Of a stretch of 64,000 nucleotides of DNA, positions 1,947 to 46,562 are shown one piece after another. Where the stretch lies: positions 32,001 through 96,000 of IMG/VR virus record IMGVR_UViG_3300037470_000672. The stretch is one strand, 5' to 3'. Each line of letters opens with the position of its first letter. The first letter of the stretch is position 1. Source of the stretch: a virus. The translations under genes and the position numbers were made by a program. Under the pieces are notes generated by a model. It was not told where the DNA came from. It made no database searches and saw only the letters and a list, made by a program, of their open reading frames with translations.

Positions 1947-2323
1947 CTAGGCGGCTGAGGGCGGAGTGAAGCCAGGGTCTGTCGGCTCCCCCGCAAGCCC
2001 CTCCAAGAGGACGAGCTTGCCGTCCTTCTCGGAGAAGACTTGCTCAGCCTCGGCCGCTACCTCGTGAGCAGTAACCGCCAGCATCTTCAGCCGGGACAGT
2101 CCAGGCTGAATGGCGCCCTCACGGCGGAGCAACTCGGCGAATGTGAGCGCCTGAAGCATCTCTTGGCGGGTCACTGATCGTCATCCTCGTCGTCTGCCGG
2201 CGAAGGCTTCTGCCGCTTCTGCTTCTTGGGGTCAGCCTCCTTGGCGTCTTCGGTCAAGGGCTTCCCGCTTGGGTAGGGCATGTCCTCGGTGATCATTTCG
2301 CCACTGGGTCTGGGCTGGACCAT
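1947..2323 (-). CDS. Two small hypothetical genes (1947..2174; 2171..2323)
   Basis: GTGA overlap; GGAGG RBS before the ATG at 2323. Confidence 0.55.
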
Positions 2324-2345
2324 CGAATCCTCCGTAGTTGTCCTG

Positions 2346-2381
2346 GTCTCGGAATTTCAAGGACCTGAGCATCCACTCAAG
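2346..2381 (-). repeat. Solo CRISPR repeat copy (31/36); contains the stop codon of the upstream gene
   Basis: GTCTCGGAATTTCAAGGACCTGAGCATCCACTCAAG. Confidence 0.9.
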
Positions 2382-2739
2382 CGACCGCAGGCATCCAGCG
2401 AAACCCCATGAACTGAAAGATCCTGCGCAGCTCCTTGGTGAGCTTCAAACGGTCTTTCTCCGTCTTCACCTTCACCGTGTGCAGGTATTCACAATCGGTC
2501 CGCGACGGGGCGTCCAGAACCAGGCGCACCGACACCAAGCCGGAGTCCAAGCAGCGCAACTCACCTCGGAAATCTCGGTTCGCAACCAACGTGAAATCGA
2601 CCCCCACACCCGGCAAACCTCGCTTCCGAGTGCACAAAAGGTCCAAGCCGAACATCTCCAGCACAGACAGGAGCCGAGCCATGTTCTGGCCGCTCAGGGC
2701 GTCGCTCTTCAATCTTCGTAAGACCTCAGATAACGGCAC
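2377..2739 (-). CDS. Hypothetical protein
   Basis: 120-aa ORF in operon orientation. Confidence 0.6.
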   Translation of the reverse strand: MPLSEVLRRLKSDALSGQNMARLLSVLEMFGLDLLCTRKRGLPGVGVDFTLVANRDFRGELRCLDSGLVSVRLVLDAPSRTDCEYLHTVKVKTEKDRLKLTKELRRIFQFMGFRWMPAVA

Positions 2740-2899
2740 TTGAGCGTCCTTTGGATAGAAGAGTCAGGCGAGCGGTCCGTAGCGGCCCTGGGGGGTATGG
2801 ATCGCAGACCGCTCGCCTGACCCAAGCGAGACCAATGGGAAGGTAGGCCCCTACAAAGGGTAGTAGCCACCGTTTTGGTTGTCAAATTCGGGGCTTCTC

Positions 2900-3328
2900 T
2901 CATCGAGCCTCGGTCCAAAACTCCCGAGGACTGATCTGCAAAGCCCTAGCTACCGCCTCCAGCGTTGACACCCGGGTATCGTTTTCTGATGCGTTCAGCA
3001 TCCGATAGAGGCTGCTCCGAGACACCCCCGACCGCTGAGCAAGCGTATCGTAGGTCAAACCGAGCCGGCTCATTCGCTTTTTGACGACCTCGGTGAGACA
3101 AAATTGAAAGGCCACAGCCGATATTTTTTGAACCGGTTGTGCTCGCTTACGGGTGTACAGGCGCTTGCGCCGTTGAATAAGGGCCAAGCTCAGGCGCTTC
3201 ATCCCCCCTTCCGTGAACTCCACATCAACTTGACCCGAGGACGGATGAACAGCCCGGACGATGCCGGGCTGTTTGTCGGAGAGGGTCTCCACCTGGGAGC
3301 CTTCTTTGATGGGCCGGTAGCGGGGCAT
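2900..3328 (-). CDS. XRE-family helix-turn-helix regulator
   Basis: C-terminal LGLTYDTLAQRSGVSRSSLYRML...TLEAVARAL HTH pattern. Confidence 0.8.
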   Translation of the reverse strand: MPRYRPIKEGSQVETLSDKQPGIVRAVHPSSGQVDVEFTEGGMKRLSLALIQRRKRLYTRKRAQPVQKISAVAFQFCLTEVVKKRMSRLGLTYDTLAQRSGVSRSSLYRMLNASENDTRVSTLEAVARALQISPREFWTEAR

Positions 3329-3342
3329 GCTCTCTTGTCTCG

Positions 3343-3378
3343 GTCTCGGAATTTCAAAGATCCGAGCATCTTTTCAAG
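3343..3378 (-). repeat. Solo CRISPR repeat copy (33/36), 14 nt upstream of the XRE ATG
   Basis: GTCTCGGAATTTCAAAGATCCGAGCATCTTTTCAAG. Confidence 0.9.
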
Positions 3379-3571
3379 ACAACAAACAACTCATCACACG
3401 CCAGCTCGGCCGCGTGCGACCATGTCCGTCCGTCGTCCGGGTCTTCACTTCGCGTGACATACTCCAGCTTCTGGACTGCTTTGAGCAGTTTCCCTAGCTT
3501 GGCGCAGGGACTGCAAAGCGCCAGCGGCGCGTTGCAGTCGCCGCAGAAAGCGCACTCGGACTCGGAGCTGC

Positions 3572-3919
3572 TCATGCGCCGTCTCCGGCGTCTTTGCGGA
3601 TCCAATCCTCCGCAGCCTCCAGCCCGTCGATTGCATCCTTGATGTCCCGATCTTGAATGAAGCGCATCACCTGCTCTTCACCATCTCGCTGCCGCACCCT
3701 GCCGACCGAGACAGAGTACATGCGGCCGTTCTGCCCCTCCGCCGTCTGTACCTGGGTACGAACGTGACCGAAGTCGAAGTTGGTGGCGTTTTGCCACTCC
3801 AAACGGGGGCGCGGTGTACGCGCGGCGTACCCACCCTGCGACCGATCGCTGTACCCCTCCTGTGAGGGGTTCCCGTTGTACGACAGATTACTGTTTTGAC
3901 GGTGGTTCCTCTTGCCCAT
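3572..3919 (-). CDS. Hypothetical protein
   Basis: 115-aa ORF downstream of a TTGACA-16-TATAGT promoter (~3957-3984). Confidence 0.65.
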   Translation of the reverse strand: MGKRNHRQNSNLSYNGNPSQEGYSDRSQGGYAARTPRPRLEWQNATNFDFGHVRTQVQTAEGQNGRMYSVSVGRVRQRDGEEQVMRFIQDRDIKDAIDGLEAAEDWIRKDAGDGA

Positions 3920-4414
3920 GGTCTTGTGTTTCCCTCAGTCGTTGGGTGCCGGCTTGACTATACGCAGGACGCTTGGTGTGTCAAGCACGGTACAGGAAAA
4001 ACGCCGTACACGGCGCCAGTTCAGTTTTCTGGATCGGGTTCGGGTGATGCGGAGGGTGGGACCAACTCCTGGAAGCGGGGAGCGATTATTCCTTCCAGCT
4101 CTTCCAATCGCCCATGGACACGTAGTCCTTGGGACACCTGCTCAGCGATGCGCGCCAGACACTTGGTTCGCCCGCAGAAACATAGATTGTTGGGCTCGTC
4201 CGTCATGTGTCTCCCGGAAGGTTCCCATGGTCCACGAAGTGTTGGAGCAATGGAAGCAACACGGCTACTTGCCAGCGCGTCAGAAGCGACCGACGTCGCC
4301 GTCGCGCGCGGCCTCACGCAGCTCCGCGCATGCTTCGAGCTGATCTTCCAACTCCGCGACGCGCTGTTCGAGGTCTTTCACATCGAAAGCGCTCATGCGC
4401 TTCTTTGAGGAGAA

Positions 4415-4441
4415 AGGGGAGCGCTCCGCAGAGCGCTCCCC
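4415..4441 (-). terminator. Probable intrinsic terminator after the ArdC-like gene
   Basis: GGGGAGCGCTC-CGCA-GAGCGCTCCCC hairpin, followed by CTTTCT on the minus strand. Confidence 0.6.
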
Positions 4442-4452
4442 TTGGTTAAGGG

Positions 4453-5424
4453 TCATGCCGCCATCAGGCAGGCGTTCTCGGCCTTGAGTCGCTCGATTTC
4501 GGCCTTCATCTCGGCCAGGGTCATCTCGCTGGCTTTCTTGTCCTTGGCCGGCTTGGGCGCCTGCTCCTCGACGAAGGTGAGGATCTCTGCCGTCGCCTTC
4601 TGCACCCGGTCCGCCACCTTCTCGACCTTCTCCGGGTCGGAGCCGCTCCAGTGCGCGACGTAGCCAAAGGAGTAGCTGGCAGAGTCGACCCCCAGCGCGC
4701 TCATGACGCAGTAGGCCACGCTCTCGGCCTCCACCTCGCGGTAGTCCGTGGGGGTGTGGCACAAGCCCGACTCCTTGCTGTGCAGGATGACGTGGGCCAG
4801 CTCGTGGGCCAGGGTCTTGGCCTGCTGTGCCGGGCTGTTGGCCTCGTTGAGCGCGATGCGCTTCTCCGAGAAGACCACGTAGCCGCCCATGCCGTCGATC
4901 ATGCGCTCGGTCTCGATCGTGTAGCCCTTCTTTTGGGCCAGGTTGCTGAGCGCCGTGAACGCGAGGTCAGCGGCCGGAGACGAGCCGTCGAGGGTCTGGA
5001 TGACGTCCAGCTCGGGCAGGTCCGGACCCTCGGTCTGCGCGATGTCGTAGACGAAGACGGTCTTGAAGAATCGAACGAAGCGGTAGGGCTTCTCCTGCCC
5101 GTCTTCCGTCCGCTTACCCCAGCCGAAGATGGGGGCGCGGATGGCGATCTTTTTCTCGCTGGCCTTCACCCGACGACCGGTGCGGGTCTCCCACTGCCGA
5201 CGCCCCATGACGCGCGAGGCGCCCGGACGCTGGAGGTGGATGAGGAGCTGGTTGGTCCAGGAATACTTCCAGAACATCGCCTGGAAGGCGAGGAACTGGA
5301 CCCAGGCGTTCGAACCGATGAGCGCTTCGACGCCGCGCTTCATCTGCTCGACGAGGTCTTTCGCCTCGCTCTCCTTCTGGGCTTTGAACTGCGCCTTCTG
5401 GTCGGGAGTGAACTGCTTGCCCAT
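4453..5424 (-). CDS. ardC: ArdC-like antirestriction protein (N-terminal ssDNA-binding domain plus HELAH metallopeptidase-like domain)
   Basis: FWKYSWTNQLLIHLQRPGASRVMG..W motif; TLAHELAH; EVEAESVAY. Confidence 0.8.
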   Translation of the reverse strand: MGKQFTPDQKAQFKAQKESEAKDLVEQMKRGVEALIGSNAWVQFLAFQAMFWKYSWTNQLLIHLQRPGASRVMGRRQWETRTGRRVKASEKKIAIRAPIFGWGKRTEDGQEKPYRFVRFFKTVFVYDIAQTEGPDLPELDVIQTLDGSSPAADLAFTALSNLAQKKGYTIETERMIDGMGGYVVFSEKRIALNEANSPAQQAKTLAHELAHVILHSKESGLCHTPTDYREVEAESVAYCVMSALGVDSASYSFGYVAHWSGSDPEKVEKVADRVQKATAEILTFVEEQAPKPAKDKKASEMTLAEMKAEIERLKAENACLMAA

Positions 5425-5431
5425 CGTCTAT

Positions 5432-5496
5432 CCTCCTTCAGCGATCCTTCGCTGATCTGATTTGACAATCGTAGTCCTACAGTGTTTGTGTGTCAA
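5432..5496 (-). promoter_or_regulatory. Promoter TTGACA-17-TACGAT plus conserved leader CAGATCAGCGAAGGATCGCTGAAGGAGG
   Basis: 27 nt of the leader are identical at 28207-28233; related leaders occur at four other promoters. Confidence 0.8.
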
Positions 5497-5547
5497 GCAC
5501 GGATCCGAAAAAGATCAGATCTGCGTGTGCGCGCGGTCACCGTCCAC

Positions 5548-5590
5548 AAAGAAGAACCCCCGGCGACGCTCACTGCGGCCGGGGGCTTTC
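5548..5590 (-). terminator. Probable intrinsic terminator
   Basis: CCCCGGC...GCCGGGG stem followed by TTCTTCTTT on the minus strand. Confidence 0.55.
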
Positions 5591-5844
5591 CTCTGTGTGT
5601 ACTCACACCAGTTCGGGGCGGTCGTAGCCCCAACGCTTAACCGTAGTCCGTTTGCTCAGATCGGTTCGCCCGATGCGCTGTCTTGGGCACGCTAGCCGCC
5701 CAGCTTGCGATCTGACTGTTGGACCGTGGTTGTCCACCGACAAGGTAGAAGAGCATTGCCCGTAGGACGGCTTCAACTCCTTGTTGGCGGGGTGAAAAGC
5801 TACCTTAAACGCGGTCTTTTTCTGGGTCAAGTGTGGGACACAGA

Positions 5845-6177
5845 TCATTTCACCAGTAGGGTCTCGACCAGTGTGGCAAAGCAGATCGCCTTACTCAGCT
5901 CACGGTGAATGATGATGACCTCGGCGAGGCTCCCCGAAGCTGACTTGACGTGGATGACGGTTCTTCCGTCCGAGTACAGGCGGACCATCGCCTCTACACC
6001 GTCCGTCTGGCTGTGGAAGTTGAGGGAGATGCCGCCACTGGCCGAGTCCGGCAGCGTGCCTGCCTCGTAGGCGTCGGCCAAGGCTTCCAGCTCCTCAACC
6101 TCTTCGCGCTGCGGGTAGAAGCCGGAGCAGAGACTGATCTCGCCAAGGCTCTGTCGGAGGAGGCTGTAGTTGATCAT
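5845..6177 (-). CDS. Hypothetical protein
   Basis: ATGA overlap with 6174..6920. Confidence 0.55.
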   Translation of the reverse strand: MINYSLLRQSLGEISLCSGFYPQREEVEELEALADAYEAGTLPDSASGGISLNFHSQTDGVEAMVRLYSDGRTVIHVKSASGSLAEVIIIHRELSKAICFATLVETLLVK

Positions 6178-6920
6178 GTGCGCCTCGACACGATCGCTTC
6201 GTAGTCCGGCGCGCCCTGGAACTCGATGCTCACGACCGGGCGCTCCTCTTCCGGCAGACTGCGGATGTAGTCGCGGAGCGCGATGGCGGGTTCGTTGGCG
6301 AGGGTCATACCCTCCTCGGGGATCTTCGCCTCGATGTTCTCCAGGTCGAAGCCGGCCTCCTGGAGGGTCGTGAGGGTCTTCTCGTGCTGCTCCTCTTCGT
6401 GCTTCGCGCGCCACTCTTCCTGCTCGCGACGGAACTCCTCGTCACGCTGCTTCGCGCGCTCTTCCATCGCCTCCAAGGCACCAGCAAAGGTCGTGTCGGC
6501 GCTGAGCCCCACCTTCTCCAGGACGCCGAGCACAGCAGCCTCGCGCAGCACCAGGAGCATCTCGTGCTCGTAGACGTGTTGCGGATCGGCGCCCGTCTCA
6601 GCAGGATCGTAGTCCGGCGGGAAGACCGTGAAAGGCTCCGCGACGAAGATCCCTTGGTCACCCGCGTGGTCCGAGGGTCCGTTAAAAACGGTCGGCTCAC
6701 CAGCGTGCTCCCAGCACGCCTCGTGGTAGAGCGCGGCGCTATCAAGCGTCTCGTCCTCTTCGTGACCGATGTTGCCGTAGCCGTCGTAGGTCCCCTTGCA
6801 AACCGAGCCGTCTGGCAGGATGGCCACGGCCTGCTGCATCCAGTCCCGGTAACCGGCCGCCGAATACCCAGAGCGAATCGACCGGCCACAGCTCTTGCAG
6901 TTCCACGAGAAGAAACCCAT
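6174..6920 (-). CDS. Hypothetical protein (N-terminal CxxC)
   Basis: Strong RBS, leader and promoter TTGCCC-17-TAGGCT at 6962-6990. Confidence 0.75.
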   Translation of the reverse strand: MGFFSWNCKSCGRSIRSGYSAAGYRDWMQQAVAILPDGSVCKGTYDGYGNIGHEEDETLDSAALYHEACWEHAGEPTVFNGPSDHAGDQGIFVAEPFTVFPPDYDPAETGADPQHVYEHEMLLVLREAAVLGVLEKVGLSADTTFAGALEAMEERAKQRDEEFRREQEEWRAKHEEEQHEKTLTTLQEAGFDLENIEAKIPEEGMTLANEPAIALRDYIRSLPEEERPVVSIEFQGAPDYEAIVSRRT

Positions 6921-7045
6921 CTTGACCTCCTTCAGCGATTCATCGCCGATCTGTTTTTACAAGCCTAAACGTATTGGATACGTAGGGCAAGCACAAAGCG
7001 GGTGTTTGGAGCCGATCTGTTGTGACGGGCGCCCCACCTAACAAT

Positions 7046-7061
7046 CCGCCCGTACGGGCGG
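7046..7061. repeat. 16-bp perfect palindrome CCGCCCGTACGGGCGG (copy 1 of 5)
   Basis: Also at 10183, 30461, 46145 and 60764. Confidence 0.9.
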
Positions 7062-7069
7062 TTTGGGTC

Positions 7070-7279
7070 CTACTTACCTAGCGTCGCAGCTGGCTTCGCG
7101 GTTGGCTTCTCAGCCAGCTTCTGACCAGCGTCCTTCTGCGGCGTCGGTCCGGCGTCAGTCCTGGGCTCGACCGGCGCCTCTTCTTTGGCGGGAGCCTCAG
7201 CGGATTTGTCCGCCTTGGGGGTGCAGGCGATGAGCGCCAGCGCCGAGAGATTGAGACCGATGAGCAGAATGCGCAGCAT
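7070..7279 (-). CDS. Small lipoprotein
   Basis: Hydrophobic signal with LIAC lipobox; low-complexity P/A/K tail. Confidence 0.65.
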   Translation of the reverse strand: MLRILLIGLNLSALALIACTPKADKSAEAPAKEEAPVEPRTDAGPTPQKDAGQKLAEKPTAKPAATLGK

Positions 7280-7321
7280 GTGGAACCTCCATGCGCCGTC
7301 TGCTCCCTCGGGCCTGGACGT

Positions 7322-7957
7322 TCAAGGGGGTTCACGGAGTCCGATGCGGACCTTGAGCCGGTAGGACAACACCAACGAATTCGTACCGAAATCCTTGAAA
7401 ATCGCCTCGGTGACGAAGCGCAGACCCCCGGGTGTAGTGATGGCGGGAGCGATCTCGTACTCGGTCATCGCCAGGGACAGGGTGGTCACGCCGTCGCCGA
7501 GCAACGCCTCATCCTCGACGTAGGCGATCTCAACAGGGGCCGCGCCCTCGGCGCTCACGTACAAGGTGATGTCCTCAAAGAGGGTGGTGATGCTGCGCTC
7601 GTACTGTTCCACCATCTCGAAGGCGACGAACCTGGCTGATTCGATGTCGTCCATGCTGCGCCCAGCTTCTTGTATCCGGGCACGGATGGCGGCGTTCAGG
7701 GCGAACCCGACCTCGGGCGGGACGGTGTTCTCGGGGTAGAGGGGGTAGTACACATTGGACGCGGCAGGGTGGATGTCGTCGTTGTAGCCGTTGATCTGGA
7801 TCAGCTCATCCATCTCGACCTCGACGTACAGCAGGTCGGGGTCGTCTTCGGCTACGACGCCTTGGCCGGGGCCGGCGTCACTCTGTTGGGTCGGATCTGT
7901 ACCGCAGGCGCAAAAAGCCAGGGCGACGAACGGATAGAAGATAAGGGCTCTGTGCAT
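7322..7957 (-). CDS. Lipoprotein
   Basis: Signal peptide MHRALIFYPFVALAFCAC. Confidence 0.65.
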   Translation of the reverse strand: MHRALIFYPFVALAFCACGTDPTQQSDAGPGQGVVAEDDPDLLYVEVEMDELIQINGYNDDIHPAASNVYYPLYPENTVPPEVGFALNAAIRARIQEAGRSMDDIESARFVAFEMVEQYERSITTLFEDITLYVSAEGAAPVEIAYVEDEALLGDGVTTLSLAMTEYEIAPAITTPGGLRFVTEAIFKDFGTNSLVLSYRLKVRIGLREPP

Positions 7958-8071
7958 CGTGGCCTCCTGACAGTACAAGAAGCACGTTAACACATGCCGT
8001 CAAGGGCGCGAAAGCAAAGGGGAAATCTCTAGAAGTCTCCGGAACGTAAAACCCCTTACCTCAGAGAAAGA

Positions 8072-8198
8072 TGGCGGAGAGCGGTGGTCCTGATCCAGTC
8101 TCGGAATTTCAAGGATCCGAGCATCCTTTCAACATCCATAACGCATGCGCGTCCTGACGGGTAGCAGCCGTAGCCCGGGCCTCCCGGGTTCACTCTCC
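8072..8198 (-). pseudogene. tRNA-Ser(GCU) interrupted by a CRISPR repeat plus a 5-bp duplication
   Basis: Acceptor GGAGAGT/GCTCTCC-G-CCA; anticodon arm ACGG-CTGCTAC-CCGT; removing 41 bp gives an 86-nt class II tRNA. Confidence 0.85.
8098..8133 (-). repeat. Solo CRISPR repeat, 36/36 identical to the array repeat, flanked by ATCCA direct repeats
   Basis: ATCCA at 8093-8097 and 8134-8138. Confidence 0.95.
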
Positions 8199-8204
8199 AC
8201 AGGT

Positions 8205-8291
8205 TGGCAGCGGGCAGCGGAATCGAACCACGACGCCTAAGCGCCCTCCAGTTTTCAAGACTGGTCGCTCCCCATGAGCAGTACCCGCTTC
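8205..8291 (-). tRNA. tRNA-Ser(UGA), imperfect stems
   Basis: CCAGT-CTTGAAA-ACTGG anticodon arm, long variable arm, TTCGATT loop, 3' CCA. Confidence 0.7.
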
Positions 8292-8297
8292 ATGTAG

Positions 8298-8389
8298 TGG
8301 TGGCCCGAGCGAGAGTCGAACTCGCATGCCCCTCACAAGGCACCAGGGTCTGAGCCTGGCGTGTCTACCGGAAATTCCACCATCGGGCC
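8298..8389 (-). tRNA. tRNA-Leu(CAG)
   Basis: GGCCCGA/TCGGGCC acceptor, CCAGG-CTCAGAC-CCTGG anticodon arm, TTCGAC loop, CCA end. Confidence 0.9.
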
Positions 8390-8390
8390 A

Positions 8391-8466
8391 TTGTGCGGAC
8401 GGCAGGAGTCGAACCTGCACTGACCGGGATTTGACGCCGGACCCTCTGCCGTTGGGGTACGTCCGC
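8391..8466 (-). tRNA. tRNA-Leu(CAA)-like, short variable arm, degenerate (ends CAA)
   Basis: GCGGACG/CGTCCGC acceptor; GCAGG-TTCGACT-CCTGC T-arm; mismatch in the anticodon stem. Confidence 0.6.
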
Positions 8467-10137: not shown

Positions 10138-10173
10138 GTCTCGGAATTTCAAAGATCCGAGCATCTTTTCAAC
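10138..10173 (-). repeat. Solo CRISPR repeat copy (34/36, variant B), 9 nt from the palindrome core at 10183-10198
   Basis: GTCTCGGAATTTCAAAGATCCGAGCATCTTTTCAAC. Confidence 0.9.
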
Positions 10174-10209
10174 ACACTCAATCCGCCCGTACGGGCGGAT
10201 CACATCTCG

Positions 10210-11350
10210 TCATCGCAGTAGCTCCTCCCCGTCCTTGTAGACGGCGTTCGCCAGCATGTCCGACTCGTTGCGAGGGTAGGAAGAGGTGGAGCTGTTCCAC
10301 GCCTTCTCGCGCAGCGCCTTTTTGCTGGGCGGACGCCAGCGGGGCGGCATCTCGTAAGCGCTGCGCAAGCGGTGGTGGAAGTTCTGCTGCGGCCCCGGAA
10401 TGTCGTGCCGAGCTGCACCAGACCAGGCAAGCTCACCTTTCTTGGCAAGCCAGTCGAGGGCAGCCTTGCGGGAGGATAGCCGCACAACCTTCGTCTCGGG
10501 GTGGCGCAGGTCGGTCGTCTGCTCGATGCCGTAGAAGACGGTCATCAGTTCGTTCTTCCTTTTTTCATCTCGGCCATGAGGAGGTCAGCTTGGACGGCGG
10601 TCTCTTCAGGAGAGAGGTCTGAAGTACCGCCTCGCTGGCAGCGCTCCCCCATGACGATCAACAGCTCCCGGACCTCGTTATCGGTCCATTGCTGAGGCTT
10701 TCCCGCGCGGTAAGTGTCGAGGAGTTTCTCCAGCGCGCTACTCTCCTCATCGGCCGCGAAACCAAGCGCTGCGGCCTCTTCCTGGAGGGAAAGAAGAAGC
10801 TGCACCTCCTGTCGGCGCTTGTCCAGCTCGCACTCCCACGCAACGATCTTGTTGGCAAGCGTCTTCGCCCTTTCTGGGTCCAAACGATCGACGAACCGTC
10901 TGAACCAGAAATCGCTCCGTTTCGTTGCGAGCTTGTCCGGGTATGTCACTCCTGACCCGCCTCAGTAACGATGATCTTGGGCACCGGTTCATCACCACAT
11001 TGGAACGGCTCGCTTGAAGCGATCGGTCGGGTATCCAGCCCCTCCGTGTAGAACTGGTGCCGAATGACTTGGACGACATCGAATGCGGCCCGGTGCGCAT
11101 TGGGGACCAGAGGGTTGTGGATGCTCGGTCCCCCGCTGGCGAAGTATGCCCCGCCCCCCATCCAGTTGACGATCTGGTGAAGCACGTCACGCGCTTCTGC
11201 CAACCCGTCGACGTAGCCCGGAAGATGCTGCGTGTTGTCGAGGACCGCGCTGGCAAGCTGTCCCATGCCCAAACGCGCCAGCGTGTCACACGCTTGCATG
11301 ATGGCACGCGCCTGACCCTCGGTCAGCTCCAGCCGGTACAGCTTCGTCAT
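10210..11350 (-). CDS. Three hypothetical genes (10210..10545; 10545..10949; 10946..11350)
   Basis: Coupled ORFs; TTGACG-17-TATAGT promoter immediately upstream of 11350. Confidence 0.65.
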
Positions 11351-11467
11351 GCTCTGACTATAGGCGCGCTATGTTATAGCGTCAAGCCGGGGCTACCTGA
11401 TCTTGCGTTGTCGGAGGTTGTTCCAGGTTCTATCGGACCACTCCAGCAGGGGCAGGGAAGAAGCTCT

Positions 11468-11503
11468 GTCTCGGAATTTCAAGGATCCGAGCATCCATTT
11501 AAC
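11468..11503 (-). repeat. Solo CRISPR repeat copy (34/36)
   Basis: GTCTCGGAATTTCAAGGATCCGAGCATCCATTTAAC. Confidence 0.9.
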
Positions 11504-23988: not shown

Positions 23989-24172
23989 GTATCGGAATTC
24001 CATATATCCGAGCATCTTTTCATCCCCACGCACGCCTCGAACGCCCGTAGCTGCCCACTCGTGTCTCGGAATTTCAAGGATCCGAGCATCCTTTCAACCA
24101 GTCGAGCTACCGCACGGCGACGGTCGCGTCGCTCTTGTCTCGGAATTTCAAGGATCCGAGCATCCTTTCAAC
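23989..24172 (-). CRISPR. CRISPR array: three 36-nt repeats, two 38-nt spacers
   Basis: Repeats at 24137-24172 and 24063-24098 (identical) and 23989-24024 (degenerate trailer, 29/36); starts 23 nt after the cas12 stop. Confidence 0.95.
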
Positions 24173-28200: not shown

Positions 28201-28211
28201 CTTGCACTCCT

Positions 28212-28730
28212 TCAGCGATCCTTCGCTGATCTGTTTCGCCTACCGTAAGACCTAGCTTTTGCCTTGTCAAGGGACAAGACCTTTGCCTGGTTCTTTTTTC
28301 GGTATTGGACCACTTCCCGCTCGGGCGGTGGTAGGCCCGTGAAGGGAACGATCGCAGGAAACCCAAACCGAGGTAGGTGCGTACAAAGCCGCTGCACCAG
28401 GATGGGGAGGCGCAAGTTCTCCGACTGCAAACCCTCAAGATCCGACATAAAAACCGTAGCTATCGGCTTGGGTAGCTCGACGGTCCAGTCCCAAAAGGCC
28501 AGCGTATGGAGACCGGAGATTTCACCCACCAGGGCTTGGCGCTCTGGGTACGCCACGTTCCGATACTCTGGCTTGGGTGGCAGCAGCTTCACCAGATGCG
28601 ATGGCGGAAAGCGCCGCTGATCTGATGGACCGCACGGCGTGAGCTGGCGGTTTTCACCTAGCTTCCAAAGCTGGTGGCGGTTGCCCTCGCGTAGAACGCC
28701 GAAGAAGTACGATTCGTGCTGCATTCTCAC
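28212..28730 (-). CDS. Hypothetical protein
   Basis: 172-aa ORF coupled to 28727..29284. Confidence 0.55.
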   Translation of the reverse strand: MRMQHESYFFGVLREGNRHQLWKLGENRQLTPCGPSDQRRFPPSHLVKLLPPKPEYRNVAYPERQALVGEISGLHTLAFWDWTVELPKPIATVFMSDLEGLQSENLRLPILVQRLCTHLPRFGFPAIVPFTGLPPPEREVVQYRKKNQAKVLSLDKAKARSYGRRNRSAKDR

Positions 28731-29435: not shown

Positions 29436-30423
29436 ATGATGATGCTGAAAGCCGAGGGACGCCGCCTGTACTTCGAGGGAGCGCCCTTCGCCGCGAAGGA
29501 TAGGATCAAGGCGCTCGGCGCCGCGTCTATTGTTTACGACGCTCATTCAGAGTACCCTAGCGGCTGAGAGCCGCCGCCACCCAACGCCCCCGCGGGGGCA
29601 GAGGAGATGATGATGACGTCACCGACCGAACGGCCCTCCTCACCGAGAAGATCGTCCCCGCGGGGCATCGAGGTGGTCGAGGTGACTGTGTGCGGCTCGT
29701 CGCTGACCTACACCTACTATATCGACGCGGCGGGCGTCCATCACCCCGCGACTCTCGCGGGGACGCCGTGGGCGCTGGACGGGCGCCCCATCCCCGAGCC
29801 CGACGACGTCGGGTGGCGCGCAGAGATCGGGCACCGACTGCCCGACGCCGAGCACGGCGTCGAGTGGGGCGCGGATGTCGTGGTCGACGACGACGACGAC
29901 TGACACCGTCTCCCTCGCCCGGCGCCGAGGGACTCCGACTGCGCAGCGCCGGTGCCCCGCGAGGGGCAGGCCCCCGAGGTCGCCGCCTGCACGCGGTGGG
30001 GGCCGCACGCTCCGATGACGGGCGCAGCGATAGCGGACGCGGCGCGTGCGCAGAGTGTGGGCGGTTTGCATCTTTGGAGGACTGCTCAGACAGTAGCGGA
30101 CTCGTCGCAGGATGCTGCTCGCGCTGCGCCTCGATGTCACCCTACGCGCGGTCCTTCGCGTGATGCCTAGCCGGCCCGTCGCCTTCGAATTCGAGATACG
30201 CACCACCGAGGGCGTAACGTGGTGCCATGTGCAGGGTTCGGGTGGGCGCGTCGGTGACGGCGCGCTCTATATCACGGACACGACCACCCTCGCGTACGTG
30301 GAGCAAAGACTACTGGCTCGTGTGCGCCTCTTGGCCGAGCGGGGACCGTTATACATCGATGGGCAAGACGTGTGTGTACAGGAAGTCTGCGCGGTTCGTA
30401 TTCGGTATTCGCCTATCTCGTAG
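29436..30423 (+). CDS. Plus-strand island of small ORFs (29436..29567; 29607..29903; 30112..30423)
   Basis: RBSs before 29436 and 29607; the only plus-strand genes that look real. Confidence 0.5.
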
Positions 30424-30597
30424 GTGCCCGGCTCTTTCATTTCCGAGACGTACCCTCAATCCGCCCGTACGGGCGGATCGGGGTTGAAGAGAGGGTGCTC
30501 AGATCCTTGGAATTCCAAGACCGACGCGCTGTCAGCAACACCAACCCGAGCCGTCTTAGGTGTCTCGGAATTTCAAGGATCCGAGCATCCTTTCCGG
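30415..30597. CRISPR. Head-to-head repeat cluster: degenerate + copy 30415-30449, + copy 30483-30521, minus copy 30562-30597
   Basis: Aligned by eye to the array repeat; 33-nt and 40-nt intervening segments. Confidence 0.75.
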
Positions 30598-30633
30598 AAA
30601 AAGAGAAAACCCCCAGTCGTGTCCAACTGGGGG
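30598..30633 (-). terminator. Intrinsic terminator
   Basis: 8-bp CCCCCAGT/ACTGGGGG stem plus TTTTCTCTTTTT on the minus strand. Confidence 0.8.
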
Positions 30634-39600: not shown

Positions 39601-40503
39601 CGTGTAGGTCAGGGACTTACGGACAAGAGCCGAGGTGTCAGCACGCTTCCACAACACCTCGGTCGGGAACGCCCCTGAGTACGTAATGACCTTGGTAGCC
39701 CCGCTAGCAAACCCTTCCGCCGGCCCCTCATCGATGAAGTGGATGAGCTGGAGAAGGGCACGGTGTTGCGCTTCACTCAGCCCTGACCCCGACCGCGGAT
39801 CGTACTCCCCTGTGGAGTCGAAAAACTTCCAATTCCCTGCTGTTGGGTCGTAAGAAAATTCTCCAGCTACGTCCGGAGTAGCTCCCCCTACCGAGTCCAG
39901 TTTCGCCACGCCGCTGTCATCGATGGATAGCTTGCTGGTCTGAATCTGACCATCCACGCCATCGAACCTAGGAACCCCGTTGTCGGCCGAACCGCTTGGT
40001 GGAGGTGCAATCGTAACGGTTTTCCAGACCGACCCGTCCCACCGCTGAAGAAGCCGACGACCTACCCCATCGTCCAGAAGCCAAAGGTCTCCTACAACGT
40101 CACCTGTGGCAGGACGTTCCCCGATGGCTCCTGACCCGAATAGGTCTGCGTCCTCTGCGTCGATCGTTGTCGGCAGCCCTGTTACTGGGTCTACATAAGT
40201 GATCTGCCGGGTACCCATCGTCGCTCATCGAGCCCGCGATGATGTTCGTGCGCTCTTGTTCTTTGGGGGCACTTCGCCATTCGAGGAGGGCGCCGCGCCG
40301 TTCAAAGTCGGTTCGGGCTTTGTGGCGACGCCTACAGGGCCGTAGGTATCCTTGTACATCTTCCACTCGTGGATGACCTGCGCCATCAGCTTCAGCGACA
40401 AGTCCAGGACCCGGTGATCGTCGCGCGTACCTTGGTACTTCGCTACGACTCCATCCAGGTAGCCGTACGCAGTGTCTGGGGTGACGGTGATCTTGTCAGC
40501 CAT
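36677..40503 (-). CDS. Putative virion structural genes (36677..37801; 37798..38526; 38534..39475; 39472..40218; 40225..40503)
   Basis: Contiguous beta-rich, T/D/G-rich ORFs in the morphogenesis block. Confidence 0.6.
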
Positions 40504-40519
40504 GGGGTCGAAGCTCCTA

Positions 40520-42751
40520 TCAGGACACACCCGGTCCGCGGCTGATGAACATCGGCATGTAGAGCACATCCACTGTTGTGGCGACGCCGTCAGCGCCTTG
40601 AACGATGCCGACCTGGAAGACAACGCGGTTGTTCGCTCCTGCGGGGATGGACGTGTCTACCTGACCCGCCGTAGTCGACAGGTAGCAGGGAAGGCCGTTG
40701 AAAGCCGACGCAGGGGCAGACACGAAGCGAATCGGAACCAAAGACCCTGGCGCGGTGTAAATCTGCGCCGGGTTGCCTGCCGTCGCTGCCGCTCGGGTCA
40801 CGCCCGTTACCAGCCCATCGGATAGTGTTCCGGTGTCGGCATCTGCTAGGCCGACGTCTCCGTCAGATTCGATCTGTACGACGTCTCCTGCCGTCAGCGT
40901 GTCGTTGGTCGTGAAGATGAGACCGGCGCCGCCTGCGATGTTGCTGAACTGCGGAAGGTCAACCTTCTCCAACCCCGCCGTTGAGTCCAAGACGAGAAAG
41001 TCGTCCGCGCCGTCCGTGACGGTAAGCGCGGTCGCGCTCGCGTTGGGGATGGTGTAGGTCGAGTCATCTGCGGAGCTGAGCAACAGGCTGCCGCTCGTCG
41101 TAGTGCTCAGGGCGAGGTTGCCGGCGTCCGCCGTCACGTTGCTGGCGCCGGTGCCGTCAATCGAAAACGCACCGGTCGCAAGCATGTCGAACGTGCCGGT
41201 GACGTCGATGTCGAGGTTGGCGCCTGCGTTGATGTCGATCAATCCGCCGGCCGTCAGGTCGATCTCATCGTCCGATGAGACGAGCACGTTGCCCGTACCT
41301 GCCCCGGCGTTCGTGGCGCTGAGAGTCAGGTTCTCCGCACCGGCGCTGTTCCCGGTGACCGTCAGGTTGGAGCTGGTCACCGCGTCGAGGGAGATGCTCG
41401 TGGTGGCGTCGACCGTTACCGCAGTCCCGTCTACGTCTACGTTGACCGCGGCGTCGATGACCACGTCACCAGAGGTGGTCGTGTTGAGCGTCAGGTTCCC
41501 GGACGCCGCCGTGACGTTGGACGCCCCTGTCCCGTCGATGCTGAACGCCCCTGTCGCCAGGATGTCTACGGTCCCTGTGACATCGACATCCAGGTTGGCT
41601 CCGGCGTTGATGTCAACCAAGCCGCCTGCGGTGAGGTCGATCTCATCATCTGCGGAGAGGAGAACGTTCCCGGCACCGGCGCCTGCGTTGGTAGCCGCCA
41701 GCGTCAGGTTGATGGTCCCGGCGTCGTTGCCTGTGACCGTGAAGTTCGAGGAGGTGATGGCGTCCAGGGAGATGGATGCCGTGGCGTCGAAGAGGATGTT
41801 CGCCGCGTCTGCGTCGATGTCGCCTGTGGCGTTGAGGACTACGTTCCCGGACGTAGTTGTGCTGAGCGTCAGGTTTCCGGCGTCCACGGAGACGTTCGAT
41901 GCGGCTGTGCCGTCGATGGAAAACCCGTTGGTGCCCGACATCTGGACGTCGAAGACCGTCCCATCGAAGTCGAGCTGGGTATCGATGTCGATACCCCCGG
42001 TCGCAGTGATGAGGAGCTGCTCGGTGCCGGAGATGACAACGTCACCCTCAGCCGCCGACGTCGTGATCGTGTTGCCGTTTTCGTACGCTGTTTGGAGCGT
42101 TACCGCCGAAGCTGAGATGTCGGAGAACGACAACGGTGTAGAGCTACCGAAAGCGGTCTCCCAGGCGCCGTCCGCGCCTGCCCGCATGACGGACACGTTG
42201 ACCTTGCGGATCGTGCCCTGGGCTGTGTTGTCCGTATCGAACTGGTTCTGGGTGAAGTCCTCGTCCGTGGCGGTTGTGCCGATGCCGCGGATGGTCAGGG
42301 TGGTGCCGACGTGGCTGAGTACCTCGAACAGCCCGTTGTTCTGCGGATCGGCGGCGCCTGTGATCTGAATCAGATCACCAGCCGCGAACGTAGCCGTTCC
42401 TGTCGTGACCACCGTCGGGTTGGAGGTCGCCGGAACTCCGGCCGTGAACCCTCCCGCAGCGACGGTATCGTTCGTAGAGGTCGGAAGGTAGTTGACAACC
42501 AAGCCGCCCGTTTGGGCGGCCACCGTTTCGTACCCGCTGTTCAGGTAGAGGTGGTTATCGTCGAAGGAAACAGTCTCGGCCTGCTCCGTAACCATCGCAC
42601 CGCGAACCGTGAGGTTCGCGGTAATCAGTACATCGTTTTGAAGCTCCATCCGAGCACTGATCTGGAGATTGTCAGCCGCCTCGATGGTTCGAGGGAGAAA
42701 CGGCGCGGAGGCGTCCAAGATCTGGATGTTGTCTACTTGGTTTCCGGCCAC
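40520..42751 (-). CDS. 743-aa virion fibre/decoration-like protein with internal ~120-aa repeats
   Basis: Repeated FSIDGT..SNV..GNL.L.TTTSG units; C-terminal domain paralogous to 42760..43524. Confidence 0.7.
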   Translation of the reverse strand: MAGNQVDNIQILDASAPFLPRTIEAADNLQISARMELQNDVLITANLTVRGAMVTEQAETVSFDDNHLYLNSGYETVAAQTGGLVVNYLPTSTNDTVAAGGFTAGVPATSNPTVVTTGTATFAAGDLIQITGAADPQNNGLFEVLSHVGTTLTIRGIGTTATDEDFTQNQFDTDNTAQGTIRKVNVSVMRAGADGAWETAFGSSTPLSFSDISASAVTLQTAYENGNTITTSAAEGDVVISGTEQLLITATGGIDIDTQLDFDGTVFDVQMSGTNGFSIDGTAASNVSVDAGNLTLSTTTSGNVVLNATGDIDADAANILFDATASISLDAITSSNFTVTGNDAGTINLTLAATNAGAGAGNVLLSADDEIDLTAGGLVDINAGANLDVDVTGTVDILATGAFSIDGTGASNVTAASGNLTLNTTTSGDVVIDAAVNVDVDGTAVTVDATTSISLDAVTSSNLTVTGNSAGAENLTLSATNAGAGTGNVLVSSDDEIDLTAGGLIDINAGANLDIDVTGTFDMLATGAFSIDGTGASNVTADAGNLALSTTTSGSLLLSSADDSTYTIPNASATALTVTDGADDFLVLDSTAGLEKVDLPQFSNIAGGAGLIFTTNDTLTAGDVVQIESDGDVGLADADTGTLSDGLVTGVTRAAATAGNPAQIYTAPGSLVPIRFVSAPASAFNGLPCYLSTTAGQVDTSIPAGANNRVVFQVGIVQGADGVATTVDVLYMPMFISRGPGVS

Positions 42752-42759
42752 TTTTACCT

Positions 42760-44543
42760 CTACGGACGCCTTGACACGTACTGGGGTTGAATCAGAACAC
42801 TCGGAGCAATCGTGATACCGTCCGCACCTTGGAGCACACCGACCGTGAAGACCACGTTACCCGCTGTCAGCGGTGGGGTCAGACTACCGATTCCGGCCGT
42901 TGTGCTCAAGAAGACCCGCTGACCGTTCGCGGAGGCGAGCGGCGCGACGCTGAAGCGCACAGGCCCGAGGTCGCCGGACGTGGCGACCTGAACGGAGCTA
43001 CCCGCCAAAACGGCTTGGCGAGCACTCCCCACCGCATAAAAATTCCCTCCCGAAAAACTGGCAGCGGCGCGGAGCACCTCTCCTGCTGCGTCGATGGCCA
43101 CGATGTGACCCAAAGACAGAGCCTCGGCTGCAACGAGGACGACACCCCCTACGCCTCCTGCGATCCCGATCCAAAGGGCAGCGCTTGGGGTGGCGTCCAG
43201 ACAGATGAACACCGAGCTGGTCGCGGTGTTGTACCAGTGCGACCCGACCCCGTAGCCTTCGGTGCTGTCGTTGGTTGGGAGCGGATCGCTCGTCGTGCGA
43301 TTATCAAGCTGCCCGGATGTGAATGTAAGAACTTCGTCAAGGAAGTCCGGGACGATCTCGATGTCGATGTCCCCATCGACAAAGAACTGCTTGAGGTTCC
43401 GCGCGCCTTCGATGTCCGCAGGTAACCGCTCCGTAAGAAGTACTTCACCTGGCTCAAGAAACGTCTGGTAGACGCCCGCCAGGTGCTGTCGTTCAGCGCT
43501 GAGATTGGTGATGCGGACCCGCACAAGTTAGAGCCTCCGCAGCATCTCCGCGAGACGCTTACGCCGCTCTACTTCATCTTCCAAAGAGGCGACCACTTCC
43601 AGCTCCTTCTTGTCCTCTTCGGCCTTCACTCGCGCCTCCACGCGGGCGACGAGAGCTTCTTTCTCGACCTGCTTGACCTTCCTGACCAGGAACTTTGGGG
43701 GCTCAGGGAGGTAGGTCTCGTCGCCTGAGTGCTCAGGCCCGCCGCGGAACACGAGCAGACGCAGCGCGAGCAGGACGAGGCCAGAAATTGCAGCGAGCGC
43801 AGCCCAGCACTCCCAGCGCCGGGCCTGGTAGAACGCCTTGAGCTTCTTCCACATCACCACGCCTCGACGCGGAAGTCTGTACCCGCGGCCGAACGAACAG
43901 CGATGCCGGACTCATACCGCTGGCGGTAGGTCCGGGTCTCTTCGGGGAAAACTACACCGTGCACGGTTGTACCGTCGAACGAAATCTCCAGATTGTTGGT
44001 AGCGCCGTCGTTGCTGATCTGAAAGGTCCCAGCAGCGCGCCGAGAAACGATCGCACCCTGCGGCGGGGTTCCGGTCGGGGTGACGTTCCCTCCGCCCAGA
44101 GGAGGCGCTGGACGTGCCAGGCGACCGATTTCTGTCGGCCGGGGTTCAGATGTGCCGATGTCTCCGCCTGGTCGCACGATGGGCGTGGGGTCGACCTGAG
44201 CCTCAGCATCCGTGTCACCGATGAGCCAGGCGTTGTCGGCGAAGTCGGCTGTCGCTGTACCCGCTTGAAAGAAACGGACCGAGCGAACCCCGGACGGTGG
44301 TGTGGGGGGCCAGCCTGCGGGAAACGGCATGCTCTACTCCTCGTCGACGGGGACCTTCTCTATAGCCTGTTCCAGTAGTTGCGCAACAGACATCCCCCGC
44401 TTCAGAGCTGCCTTCGAGAGAGCTTCGTACGTTACCCGAGGGATGGCGACGAAGTAGAAGTCCCCAAGAAACGCCTCAGAGGCGCCTTGCTGAAGTTCCT
44501 CCTGCCCTGGCTCTGGTAGAATCGCAGGTCGTGCCCGTACCAT
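42760..44543 (-). CDS. Virion-region genes (42760..43524; 43528..43860 single-TM; 43854..44330; 44334..44543)
   Basis: Coupled ORFs. Confidence 0.6.
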
Positions 44544-44557
44544 ATCTCAGGTTCTCG

Positions 44558-45355
44558 TCAGGTCGTGGGATCTAGGATCTTACTCCTGGCACCGAGAGAA
44601 TACGGCGCCAAGCCGAAGTCGACAGGCGTGAGTGGCTGGGAACGCGGCGTAGGCGCAAACCGCACAGCTCCGTCTAGAGCGTCGGTTGCGGACGGGAAGT
44701 GTACCTGCCCTTGGTACTGCGCCGACTGAGCAAAGGCCATGTTCACGGCAACTATACGCGGTAACCCGCTCGGAAAGAACGCCTCAAAGGTTACGTCACA
44801 CAACGTCATGAACGCAATAATAGAGTCTCGTGCGGTAGACGAAGCTTGCCCCCCGTACAAGCCTATTCCGGAGTTGGGGAGGTAGAGCTTGACCTTGCGC
44901 GGAGCGAAGACCGTGGTGGTTCCTACAGACCCCTCCGGCCCGTACCGAGGAAGGATGTGTCGCCGGAGCCAGACGATAGCCGCGCGTATGTCGACGTTTC
45001 GATCAATGGCTCCGATGTTGGCTAGTGCTGCCAATCTAGCCGTGTTCACTTGCTGACCGGGCTGACCGCTAGCAGTGATCGTCAGGTCTATGTCTGTCGT
45101 GAAGACGGCCGTAAAGGTAATGAGCCGTTCACCGGTGCTCATCCACTGGTACAGCGGGAGGGTCGCCCCTGGAATCTCTTTGGGGTTGTAGTTGACCTGT
45201 TTTTGGTCGTTCAGCGAGTCGGGGAAATACTGGAAGCGCAGGAAGTCCCCTATCGGGGTGTCGTCCTGATCGTCCAGGGTCAGAAGAAGCGCATCTGCCC
45301 GCTTTTCGTTGTGAACGGGGTTGAGCGCGCTGGCTAGTGATCTCAGCGCGACCAT
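44558..45355 (-). CDS. Contractile tail tube/initiator-like protein
   Basis: FQYFPDSL.DQKQVNY; LPLYQW...GER.ITFTAVF; DVTFEAFFPSGLPR pattern. Confidence 0.55.
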   Translation of the reverse strand: MVALRSLASALNPVHNEKRADALLLTLDDQDDTPIGDFLRFQYFPDSLNDQKQVNYNPKEIPGATLPLYQWMSTGERLITFTAVFTTDIDLTITASGQPGQQVNTARLAALANIGAIDRNVDIRAAIVWLRRHILPRYGPEGSVGTTTVFAPRKVKLYLPNSGIGLYGGQASSTARDSIIAFMTLCDVTFEAFFPSGLPRIVAVNMAFAQSAQYQGQVHFPSATDALDGAVRFAPTPRSQPLTPVDFGLAPYSLGARSKILDPTT

Positions 45356-45370
45356 GCGTTCCCTTCTGGG

Positions 45371-46447
45371 CTACGCGGCTTTCTTCTTGCCGCTGGCCTT
45401 CTTCTTCTTTCCACGACGCCAGGCGCCGTACTTCTCACGATAGGCCGCGTTGTACCCTGCCTTGTAGGCGGGGTTCACGCTGAAGCGCTTGGTCTGACCG
45501 TTCGGACCGGAGCACTGGCACTGGTAGTTGGCGCATCGGCAACTCCAGTCATCGGTCTCGCCACGCGGTGTGCTCTTGTAGCCCGGAAGGTTCGCACCAC
45601 CGATGTCCGAACCGCCACGCGGTCCCGTAGCGTTGAAGGGGTTTTGCTCCTTCTCCGCCAGGCTTCGATCGAATTCGAGGAAGACTGCGCTCAGTTCTTC
45701 AAGAAGGTCTTCGTTCACGCTGCGACCCCATCAGCCGCCGCGGCTGGGTTTGGGTACTCTTTGAGCTTCGCTTCCCAATTCACTTCTTCTACACGGTATA
45801 CCGAAACGAGGCGAAGCTCAAACTCCGGATCTGCCCTCAGAACATGGCGGAAATCTCCACTTCGATCCGGGTTGAACATGAAAAACGTACCCAGTTTGCC
45901 GGTTCGGCGGTTCTTGGACAGACCGAGAAAAGCGCCGGGAGTCGCACGTCGGAGCTGCTTGTGCGCATCCGAGGAGCCGTGCGGAGCAAGTACCCCACAC
46001 AAGCGCTTCCAGTCATACCGTACAGCTTTGGCGCCTTTCCGAGCGACGAAACGATCGGCGCGAACGTGGCACTCCGTCAGGACAACGTCTGTCCCGCCTT
46101 CAGCTTGCACACCTACCACATGGTCTACCATGGGAAATTCTCGTCCGCCCGTACGGGCGGATTCAGCGGGCGCCTGTGATTGGCTTCCCCTCACCGAGGG
46201 CTTGCAGCGACGCTTCGACGCTCTCACGCAGGTGCAGCAGAATCTGCTTGGCCTCCTCGAACTGGTCGCCGCGGATGGCCTGGAGCGCGTGCCCGAGCGT
46301 CGCCTGATGCACCGAGATCGACTCGTAGGCGGTTTTCTTGTTCACCCCGAGCTGCTCGGGGGTCTTGGACAGACGCCAACCTGCGTAGGGGCCGTCCCCT
46401 AAGGCGACGCTGCGCATCTCTTCAAGGAGGCTGTTCGGGTTGCTCAT
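45371..46447 (-). CDS. Three small hypothetical genes (45371..45718; 45715..46131; 46163..46447)
   Basis: Coupled ORFs; GGAG RBS before 46447. Confidence 0.55.
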
Positions 46448-46459
46448 GCAGGCTCCGGC

Positions 46460-46562
46460 GTCTCGGAATTTCAAATATCCGAGCATCTGTTCATTGGTGC
46501 GGGCCATATCCACCGGATTGGCCGTGGTCTCGGAATTTCAAAGATCCGAGCATCTTTTCAAC
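46460..46562 (-). CRISPR. Orphan mini-array: repeat 46527-46562 (34/36), 31-nt spacer, degenerate repeat 46460-46495
   Basis: Direct reading; same repeat family as the 23989 array. Confidence 0.85.

Follow-up and report, generated by a model that had tools for sequence, protein, structure and literature searches.

Single Cas12m repeats at gene junctions and operon ends of a phage genome: candidate docking and cutting sites on the phage's own messages

What might a CRISPR (clustered and regularly interspaced short palindromic repeats) repeat do when it stands alone between two genes of a virus? The question is raised by the IMG/VR virus record IMGVR_UViG_3300037470_000672, of 175,906 bp, of which bases 32001-96000 form the window, that is, the whole stretch of 64,000 nucleotides analysed here (positions below are those of the window unless marked as genome). 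As well as the gene of the effector Cas12m and short arrays of its 36-nt repeat, the window contains single copies of the same repeat, lying at gene junctions directly ahead of ribosome-binding sites or at the ends of operons. An earlier note had suggested that Cas12 could cut polycistronic mRNA at such repeats and sequester or trim the translation-initiation region. Widened to the operon ends, this idea is the explanation favoured here, with a probability of about 0.45: the single copies would be docking and cutting sites for Cas12m on the phage's own mRNAs. The argument proceeds from what is observed, namely what the effector and the copies are, how well the copies have kept their structure, which way they point and where they lie, and the recurrence of the trait in unrelated Cas12m elements.

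The effector and its repeat

The 592-aa protein encoded directly upstream of the three-repeat array (Table 1) contains the Pfam TNB domain PF07282 (Cas12f1-like, E 1.3e-10), and a phmmer search against the PDB matched it to entry 23vw, 'Cas12m' (E 2e-80, residues 18-544), and to 8pm4, GoCas12m (E 3e-23); its RuvC motifs (D-E-D) and its zinc ribbon (CxxC) align with those of Cas12m. The full-length similarity bears out the 'Cas12' of the earlier note, specifically as Cas12m; the nearest Cas12m protein is 48% identical. In its size of ~600 aa, its TNB zinc ribbon and its resemblance over the full length to solved Cas12m, the protein is like MmCas12m2, GoCas12m, MsCas12m and MvCas12m. The array begins 23 nt past the cas12m stop, and homologous loci have the same architecture and the same 3' AC. 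No match to Cas1 was found in the record (Cas2 and Cas4 were not searched for), and no anti-repeat of the trans-activating CRISPR RNA type was found at the cas12m locus, the sole inverted copy of the repeat lying 6 kb off at a convergent junction. On its sequence, the system belongs to CRISPR-Cas type V-M, with which it shares the 36-nt repeat with terminal hairpin and AC, the pseudoknot, the lack of an anti-repeat at the locus and the absence of Cas1. Unlike the V-M systems described, in which the array lies beside the gene, it has ~24 extra single copies across the phage operons, and its arrays lie inside operons and inside a tRNA cluster.

Cas12m binds DNA next to a protospacer-adjacent motif (PAM) without cleaving it and processes its own precursor of CRISPR RNA (crRNA), which it cuts within the repeat at a point upstream of the scaffold, with no need of RuvC and also in D-E-D orthologues; the guide is of ~18 nt and forms an 18-bp heteroduplex, and the crRNAs of the solved complexes consist of a stem and a pseudoknot (PMC10442227, PMC11013384). 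For the first phage-borne Cas12m, MvCas12m of myxophage MV-1 (September 2026), only the effector and the adjacent array have been described.

The 36-nt repeat, read on the minus strand, is GTTGAAAGGATGCTCGGATCCTTGAAATTCCGAGAC. Its 28-nt core, allowing up to 3 mismatches, gave 11 matches in the window, all on the minus strand, against 0 in 100 shuffles, and the repeat family itself is certainly beyond chance. A looser search of the window adds a degenerate array-terminal copy at 23989 and a plus-strand copy at 30486-30521. In all, 12 copies are counted in the window and ~33 in the 175.9-kb record, where they make up two arrays and one pair and, for the rest, stand as ~24 single or partial copies, some of them degenerate or partial (genome 120496, 127875, 148699). 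The main array, of 6 repeats, closes a cluster of 11 tRNA genes, and both mini-arrays of the window lie within operons, where a start codon follows their last repeat at a distance of 11-12 nt. The same repeat was searched for in IMG/VR, in JGI metagenomes and in one genome each of 185,579 prokaryote species, with zero matches.

Conservation among the copies follows the RNA scaffold. In 22 aligned copies, columns 4-36 are mostly at least 90% conserved, the exceptions being columns 7, 10 and 25 and the covarying pair 8/21, and columns 1-3, which lie 5' of the expected cut, do not vary within the arrays and are free in the single copies. Since the published cut lies upstream of the scaffold, this is the pattern that would be expected if only the Cas12m-binding part had been kept. 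The 6-bp stem is 96.5% paired, and in the pseudoknot between AAGGA and the loop TCCTT (UCCUU in RNA) pair 8-21 covaries, being GC in 11 copies, AU in 5 and GU in 2.

The orientation of the copies is equally regular: 28 full copies (up to 8 mismatches) and 3 more degenerate ones lie on the coding strand, and one copy is inverted. Nearly all genes of the phage are on the minus strand, and the inverted copy follows a small block of plus-strand genes, with open reading frames (ORFs) at 29436-30423 whose GC1/2/3 pattern is like that of coding sequence. The 230 nt ahead of each copy yielded no sigma70-like promoter, and separately promoted small-RNA genes were rejected for want of promoters directly upstream of the copies. 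Since the copies follow local transcription inside operons and no promoters of their own were found, the junction copies must, to judge from this arrangement, be transcribed as parts of mRNAs.

Positions of the single copies and their recurrence

Eleven copies lie at gene junctions, with the start codon 10-26 nt downstream in 10 and 46 nt downstream in one. In the window, the distances given in the earlier note are exact in an independent ORF scan: 22 nt from 2346 to ATG 2323, 14 nt from 3343 to ATG 3328, 11 nt from 23989 to TTG 23977 and 12 nt from 46460 to ATG 46447. The gene downstream of the 3343 repeat, taken there for an XRE regulator, is confirmed by Pfam as HTH_3/XRE, and has an alternative GTG start at 3292. 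Outside the window, the repeat-to-start distances are 10, 14, 11, 11, 26, 21 and 46 nt at genome 120496, 128577, 141239, 142359, 145787, 163394 and 166455, respectively, and a GGAGG-like motif mostly starts at or just past the last base of the repeat.

The earlier note had placed the would-be guide over both the ribosome-binding site and the start codon. This is so at offsets of 10-14 nt, where the first 18-20 nt past the repeat take in the start codon as well as the Shine-Dalgarno sequence; where the offset is 21-26 nt, the same stretch takes in the Shine-Dalgarno sequence only. Altogether, the downstream 15-20 nt contain the Shine-Dalgarno sequence at ten junction copies, and the start codon too at seven. 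Stop codons were likewise said to lie in or against the repeats, which holds at 2377, where repeat positions 3-5 are the TGA, and at 46565, 2 nt from the repeat 46527-46562; at 30423 'abut' is too strong, for the stop of the plus-strand ORF is 62 nt from the plus-strand repeat, with a GC hairpin between them.

A second class is made up of operon-end copies, which come after a hairpin or 46-94 nt before a sigma70-like promoter. Four of them, at 1871, 8098, 10138 and 11468, lie at this distance upstream of such promoters and stand at the ends of the preceding units. The placing of repeats at junctions ahead of ribosome-binding sites is therefore true of many copies and untrue of about a third, which are near no such site and mark operon ends; a regulon that works by sequestering initiation regions would thus account for some of the repeat family and not for all of it.

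A perfectly conserved palindromic GC hairpin, CCGCCCGTACGGGCGG, has 14 intergenic copies genome-wide, mostly flanked by AAT/ATT, 4 of the 14 lying beside a Cas12m repeat (within 60 nt). On the coding strand most of the CCGCCCGTACGGGCGG copies lack a U-run; therefore the element may not be a terminator but a hairpin at RNA ends. At the convergent pair (30486-30597), the opposing repeat copies share the 40-bp segment between them, and their would-be guides are exact complements. Downstream of the repeat at 11468, the ATG at 11350 is only 6 nt past the -10 box of the promoter 11385-11357, and the mRNA that starts there is therefore probably leaderless.

Two further copies lie within ORFs. One, a hairpin only, is in the ORF preceding a 514-aa ORF of the head module; the other, a full copy at genome 126270-126305, is in frame in that 514-aa ORF, 53 codons before its end, encodes LKGRSDPWNSET and has coding signal on both sides.

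The scattering of single copies is not confined to this phage. The sole relative of the effector in IMG/VR (33% identity) is on a complete 109.7-kb phage, G001, which has three proteins in common with the present one. Its repeat is of different sequence and of like architecture, and occurs in a 7-repeat array and in seven scattered copies; one repeat pair stands directly after a TTGACT-17-TATAAT promoter, in the cas12m leader, and one inverted copy lies beside plus-strand tRNAs. The order 'single copy, tRNA-Phe, tRNA-Met', found in both phages, was considered as a sign of shared ancestry and rejected as coincidence, given that the regions do not align and that 3 proteins are shared. A second case is L028 (ENA contig BAEC19-1 scaffold_149), a phage-like metagenomic contig of 108 kb with a Cas12m of 577 aa. 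Over 10 kb (L028:11742-21290), 33 repeats lie in small groups and singly between small genes, all in gene orientation, and a further, more degenerate copy is found 35 nt before the cas12m start. The repeat groups of L028 have an irregular spacing of 46-73 nt, and several of the ORFs called in that region are probably array sequence. The unrelated G001 and L028 each scatter their own, different repeat, and Cas12m on mobile elements thus shows a recurrent tendency to have its cognate repeat scattered.

The history of the junctions can be read in part from the capsid relatives of the phage (61-64% identity), with which it has in common the order terminase, portal, protease, capsid and adaptor. 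In these relatives the junction between the portal and the next gene is of 7 nt and the pre-adaptor junction of 3 nt, and no repeated elements were found in 15-21 kb of their structural module; in the phage a repeat fills each of these two junctions, which measure 55 and 73 nt. The relatives' junctions being narrow and repeat-free, the copies must be insertions specific to the lineage of the phage. The divergence of the relatives is too great for a comparison of junction nucleotides or for reading a PAM at the empty sites. At the portal junction of the phage, no Shine-Dalgarno sequence was found between the repeat and the ATG, and a AAGGAGAGG motif persists just before the portal stop, upstream of the repeat; in this single case, a cut at the repeat would part the start from what was probably its old ribosome-binding site.

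Possible function and competing explanations

According to the explanation favoured here, each copy would fold in RNA into the Cas12m crRNA scaffold, with its 6-bp stem, its AAGGA/UCCUU pseudoknot and its 3' AC, and Cas12m would bind this fold and cut a few nucleotides into the repeat, as in an array. The cut would sever the transcript at gene boundaries and operon ends, and Cas12m would stay on the 5' end of the downstream fragment, with the next 15-20 nt in its guide channel. At ten junctions the channel would hold the Shine-Dalgarno sequence, at seven of them together with the start codon, most likely lowering translation or changing the lifetime of the message; the messages concerned would include those of the XRE-type regulator, of a RecA/UvsX-like recombinase and of the gene after the portal. 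At operon ends, read-through RNA would be trimmed by the cut, and the GC hairpin would form the end of the RNA left upstream. Binding and cleavage, as well as the sign and size of any effect on expression, are inferred by analogy with the known Cas12m family. It is proposed, tentatively, that this amounts to a virus-wide post-transcriptional control, with the repeat as cis operator or cleavage site and Cas12m as trans factor, that has arisen independently in several Cas12m elements.

Should this be so, a CRISPR protein would have a natural job beyond foreign DNA, gating the virus's own messages through the repeat fold and free of spacers, and there would be a reason why Cas12m systems that neither cut nor adapt persist on phages. 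Engineers who employ Cas12 or Cas6 repeats as mRNA insulators and switches would also have a precedent in nature, and the phage would provide a compact, portable pair of RNA operator and protein. A related possibility, a general switch in which the repeat hides the ribosome-binding site, was rejected, as the folds of 12 junctions show no common pattern; in the XRE leader alone a suggestive helix is predicted, in which the leader pairs with the 5' flank of the repeat.

Precedents for such a mode of working are the RNase III sites of T7, the cuts that T4 RegB makes in the GGAG of early mRNAs, and T4 RegA, all cases of intercistronic processing or translation control in phages. Like these, the copies are short, structured intercistronic elements, in early and late genes, through which a nuclease or repressor could give the genes of one transcript separate fates; protective hairpins remain after cutting at the T7 sites, and the composites of GC hairpin and repeat could do likewise. 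The T7 and T4 systems employ a host RNase or a dedicated phage protein and have no CRISPR link, so that the comparison is one of working mode and not of membership.

Closer in material are three kinds of repeat-derived RNA. RNA anti-CRISPRs (Racrs; PMC10651486) are, like the present copies, CRISPR repeats standing singly in viral genomes with their Cas-binding fold preserved; they mimic host repeats, are small RNAs with signals of their own and act on a host Cas protein, whereas here the effector is the phage's own and the copies are many, lie inside mRNAs, fill stop-to-start gaps where they stand at junctions, and have no promoter of their own that could be found. crRNA-like regulatory RNAs and mini-arrays autoregulate cas genes, and stand-alone repeats occur upstream of cas12a (bioRxiv 10.1101/2023.03.03.530964); they too are repeat copies outside arrays, and G001 and L028 have such a copy in the cas12m leader, but they act by partial complementarity to a promoter, a match that is not seen here, where the copies are far from the cas locus. 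Finally, in extraneous crRNAs a terminal or lone repeat yields an RNA guided by its flanking sequence (PMC13187072; likewise for Cas12r, bioRxiv 10.64898/2026.04.20.719267), which would be the arrangement here, with the difference that elsewhere such RNAs are waste to be suppressed and here the flank is systematically a translation start. Cas12m biology (PMC10442227, PMC11013384), viral solitary repeats as anti-CRISPR RNAs and regulatory mini-arrays are already known; the literature searches made turned up no paper on cognate repeats at the gene junctions of a Cas12m phage on a genome-wide scale.

Several observations weigh against Cas12m acting on the messages. Seven or eight copies lie away from ribosome-binding sites, and a cut at the in-frame copy at genome 126270-126305 would split and destroy its message. 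Covariation is limited to one pair, which may reflect two repeat subfamilies and not many independent events, and the excess of G-U over A-C is weak (9 vs 4). Stoichiometric binding of Cas12m to ~24 sites per genome's transcripts would compete with its role with guide RNAs, and, as far as their sequences tell, the same junctions work without a repeat in the capsid relatives. The positions themselves speak less plainly. If a 36-nt element were placed uniformly in intergenic space, 7.6% of placements would bring its 3' end to within 8-26 nt of a start, against ~10 of 20 copies observed; nevertheless, 56% of the junctions of the phage are no longer than 30 nt, and such tight junctions force any tolerated insertion to lie beside a stop codon and a ribosome-binding site. 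Therefore, a null model that gives each junction equal weight predicts much of the proximity to starts.

This last point is the strength of the first rival, already given as the alternative in the earlier note, according to which the copies are functionless: repeats would have spread from the arrays by recombination or aberrant integration, would be kept uniform by gene conversion, and would survive only at junctions and operon ends, where nothing breaks. Tolerated insertion accounts for the positions nearly as well as docking by Cas12m does. It also agrees with the 3-7 nt, repeat-free junctions of the capsid relatives, which make the copies recent gains, with the degenerate or partial copies at genome 120496, 127875 and 148699, and with the ends of the record, which show spacer loss by repeat-repeat recombination at the population level. 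It is nevertheless judged unlikely. The whole scaffold is conserved and columns 1-3 are free, as under selection for Cas12m binding; orientation tracks local transcription, the rare inverted copies included; the trait arose with different repeats in unrelated Cas12m elements; and the copies are non-randomly paired with the GC hairpin. Moreover, where there is room, the repeat is usually at the end of the gap proximal to the ribosome-binding site, with 193/14, 186/26, 45/11 and 47/21 nt upstream/downstream and one exception (genome 166455, 5/46 nt); the numbers being small, this bias is suggestive. If the copies were merely tolerated debris, they would show how freely array repeats spread in phage genomes.

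A second rival, slightly more doubtful, holds that the copies are stand-alone guide genes acting in trans, each repeat being matured together with its flank to direct Cas12m to DNA. The targets would be repeat-less alleles of the junctions in co-infecting relatives, in a TnpB-like manner in which the repeat destroys the PAM at home, or else host or rival DNA. Cas12m descends from TnpB, whose guide is the transposon flank, and this descent speaks for the idea, as do the existence of repeat-less alleles in relatives and the 40-90 nt of non-coding sequence, a possible spacer, that follow the operon-end copies 8098, 10138, 11468 and 30562. Furthermore, a single repeat suffices for guide RNA production in another phage-encoded type V system (bioRxiv 10.64898/2026.04.20.719267). 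The searches for targets point the other way. No array spacer has a second genomic match at up to 9 mismatches, and the 18-nt flanks of the single copies have no match in the genome at up to 2 mismatches and are at background at up to 4 (4.05 chance matches per random 18-mer), so that self-targeting was rejected. Both array regions, with seven spacers, gave nothing below E 0.2 against the INPHARED phages; with no protospacers found, a PAM is therefore not inferable. In addition, the junction guides consist mostly of a Shine-Dalgarno sequence and a start codon, and would be poor specific targets.

Very improbable is the proposal that the copies are recombination sites at module boundaries, 36-bp homologies for the swap or loss of cassettes such as the T4-type promoter-stem-loop cassettes. 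Copies do bracket cassettes of 1-3 genes (for instance, from genome 142359 to 141239 around a RuvC-like resolvase), one copy edges an accessory block (endonuclease VII and two ORFs) that is not in the capsid relatives, and the phage encodes a UvsX/RecA-like recombinase; yet both the exact Cas12m scaffolds with their RNA-level covariation and the bias in transcription direction would be left unexplained, and recombination between direct repeats would delete essential structural genes. The least probable explanation, Racr-type decoys in which the single repeats, as scaffolds without a guide, would titrate a V-M Cas12m of the host or buffer that of the phage, has a model in viral solitary repeat units established as RNA anti-CRISPRs for several types, V-A included (PMC10651486), and is opposed by the phage's own cognate Cas12m and two arrays, by the failure to find the repeat in the 185,579 species genomes, IMG/VR and the JGI metagenomes, by copies that lie inside mRNAs without promoters and terminators of their own, and by their number, ~24 over 170 kb against the one or two Racr units reported in anti-defence loci.

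Further features of the record

Gene calls and start codons come from a simple codon-score caller and an own ORF scan; a scan against Rfam returned tRNAs only, and a DNA search for close relatives of the phage found none. The features are collected in Table 1.

Table 1. Repeats, hairpins and associated genes (window coordinates unless marked as genome)
Feature	Position	Strand	Remarks
Operon-end single repeat	1871..1906	-	46 nt upstream of TTGTCA-17-TATAGT promoter (1824-1796)
Junction single repeat	2346..2381	-	Own TGA ends ORF 2377-2712; GGAGG at +13, ATG 2323 at +22
Single repeat in 5' leader of XRE/HTH_3 gene (2900-3328)	3343..3378	-	ATG at +14; 193-nt gap upstream
Single repeat	8098..8133	-	Downstream of tRNA-Leu and tRNA-Ser; 94 nt upstream of promoter of ORF 7322-7957
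Composite of GC hairpin CCGCCCGTACGGGCGG and single repeat	10138..10201	-	66 nt upstream of TTGCTC-N17-TATACT promoter
Single repeat	11468..11503	-	82 nt upstream of TTGACG-17-TATAGT promoter (11385-11357)
ORF, 114 aa	23633..23977	-	AGGGG-TTG initiation region in first 14 nt past terminal repeat
Mini-array, 3 repeats and 2 spacers (38 nt each)	23989..24172	-	Directly downstream of cas12m
cas12m, 592 aa	24196..25974	-	Sole TnpB/Cas12-type gene in the virus record
Convergent pair	30486..30633	both	Minus strand: terminator 30633-30610 (strong), then repeat 30597-30562
Convergent pair, plus-strand part	30461-30476, 30486-30521	+	Hairpin, then degenerate repeat
Two-repeat unit, 31-nt spacer	46527-46562 and 46460-46495	-	Fills gap between ORF 46565-46918 and ATG 46447
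CCGCCCGTACGGGCGG hairpin	7046, 10183, 30461, 46145, 60764		Nine more copies genome-wide
ATCAGCGAAGGATCGCTGA cassette	5432-5500, 6926-6994, 28206-28274; genome 25603 (+), 168244 (-)

The 114-aa ORF that follows the mini-array has no Pfam or PHROG match. The last 119 bases of the record are the same as its first 119 and lie within the main CRISPR array (genome 1-419 / 175765-175906); therefore, the assembly is circular or permuted, and essentially complete. After this overlap, the final 23 bases jump to a spacer three units on, which shows that an array variant without three spacers is present in the population.

The portal ORF (genome 128618-132745) is of 1375 aa, against ~590 aa in the capsid relatives, and its residues ~85-432 and 607-1030 have no counterpart in them. 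The first of these blocks matches HNH endonucleases, and both may therefore be intein- or homing-type insertions. In the structural region, the 743-aa ORF 40520-42751 contains a 378-nt tandem duplication, ~73% identical (41097-41918). Finally, five copies were found of a cassette in which a promoter of TTGACA type is combined with the inverted repeat ATCAGCGAAGGATCGCTGA, with AGGAGG and with a start codon; it has the look of an operator or 5'-leader hairpin common to one class of promoters, and has no relation to the CRISPR repeat.

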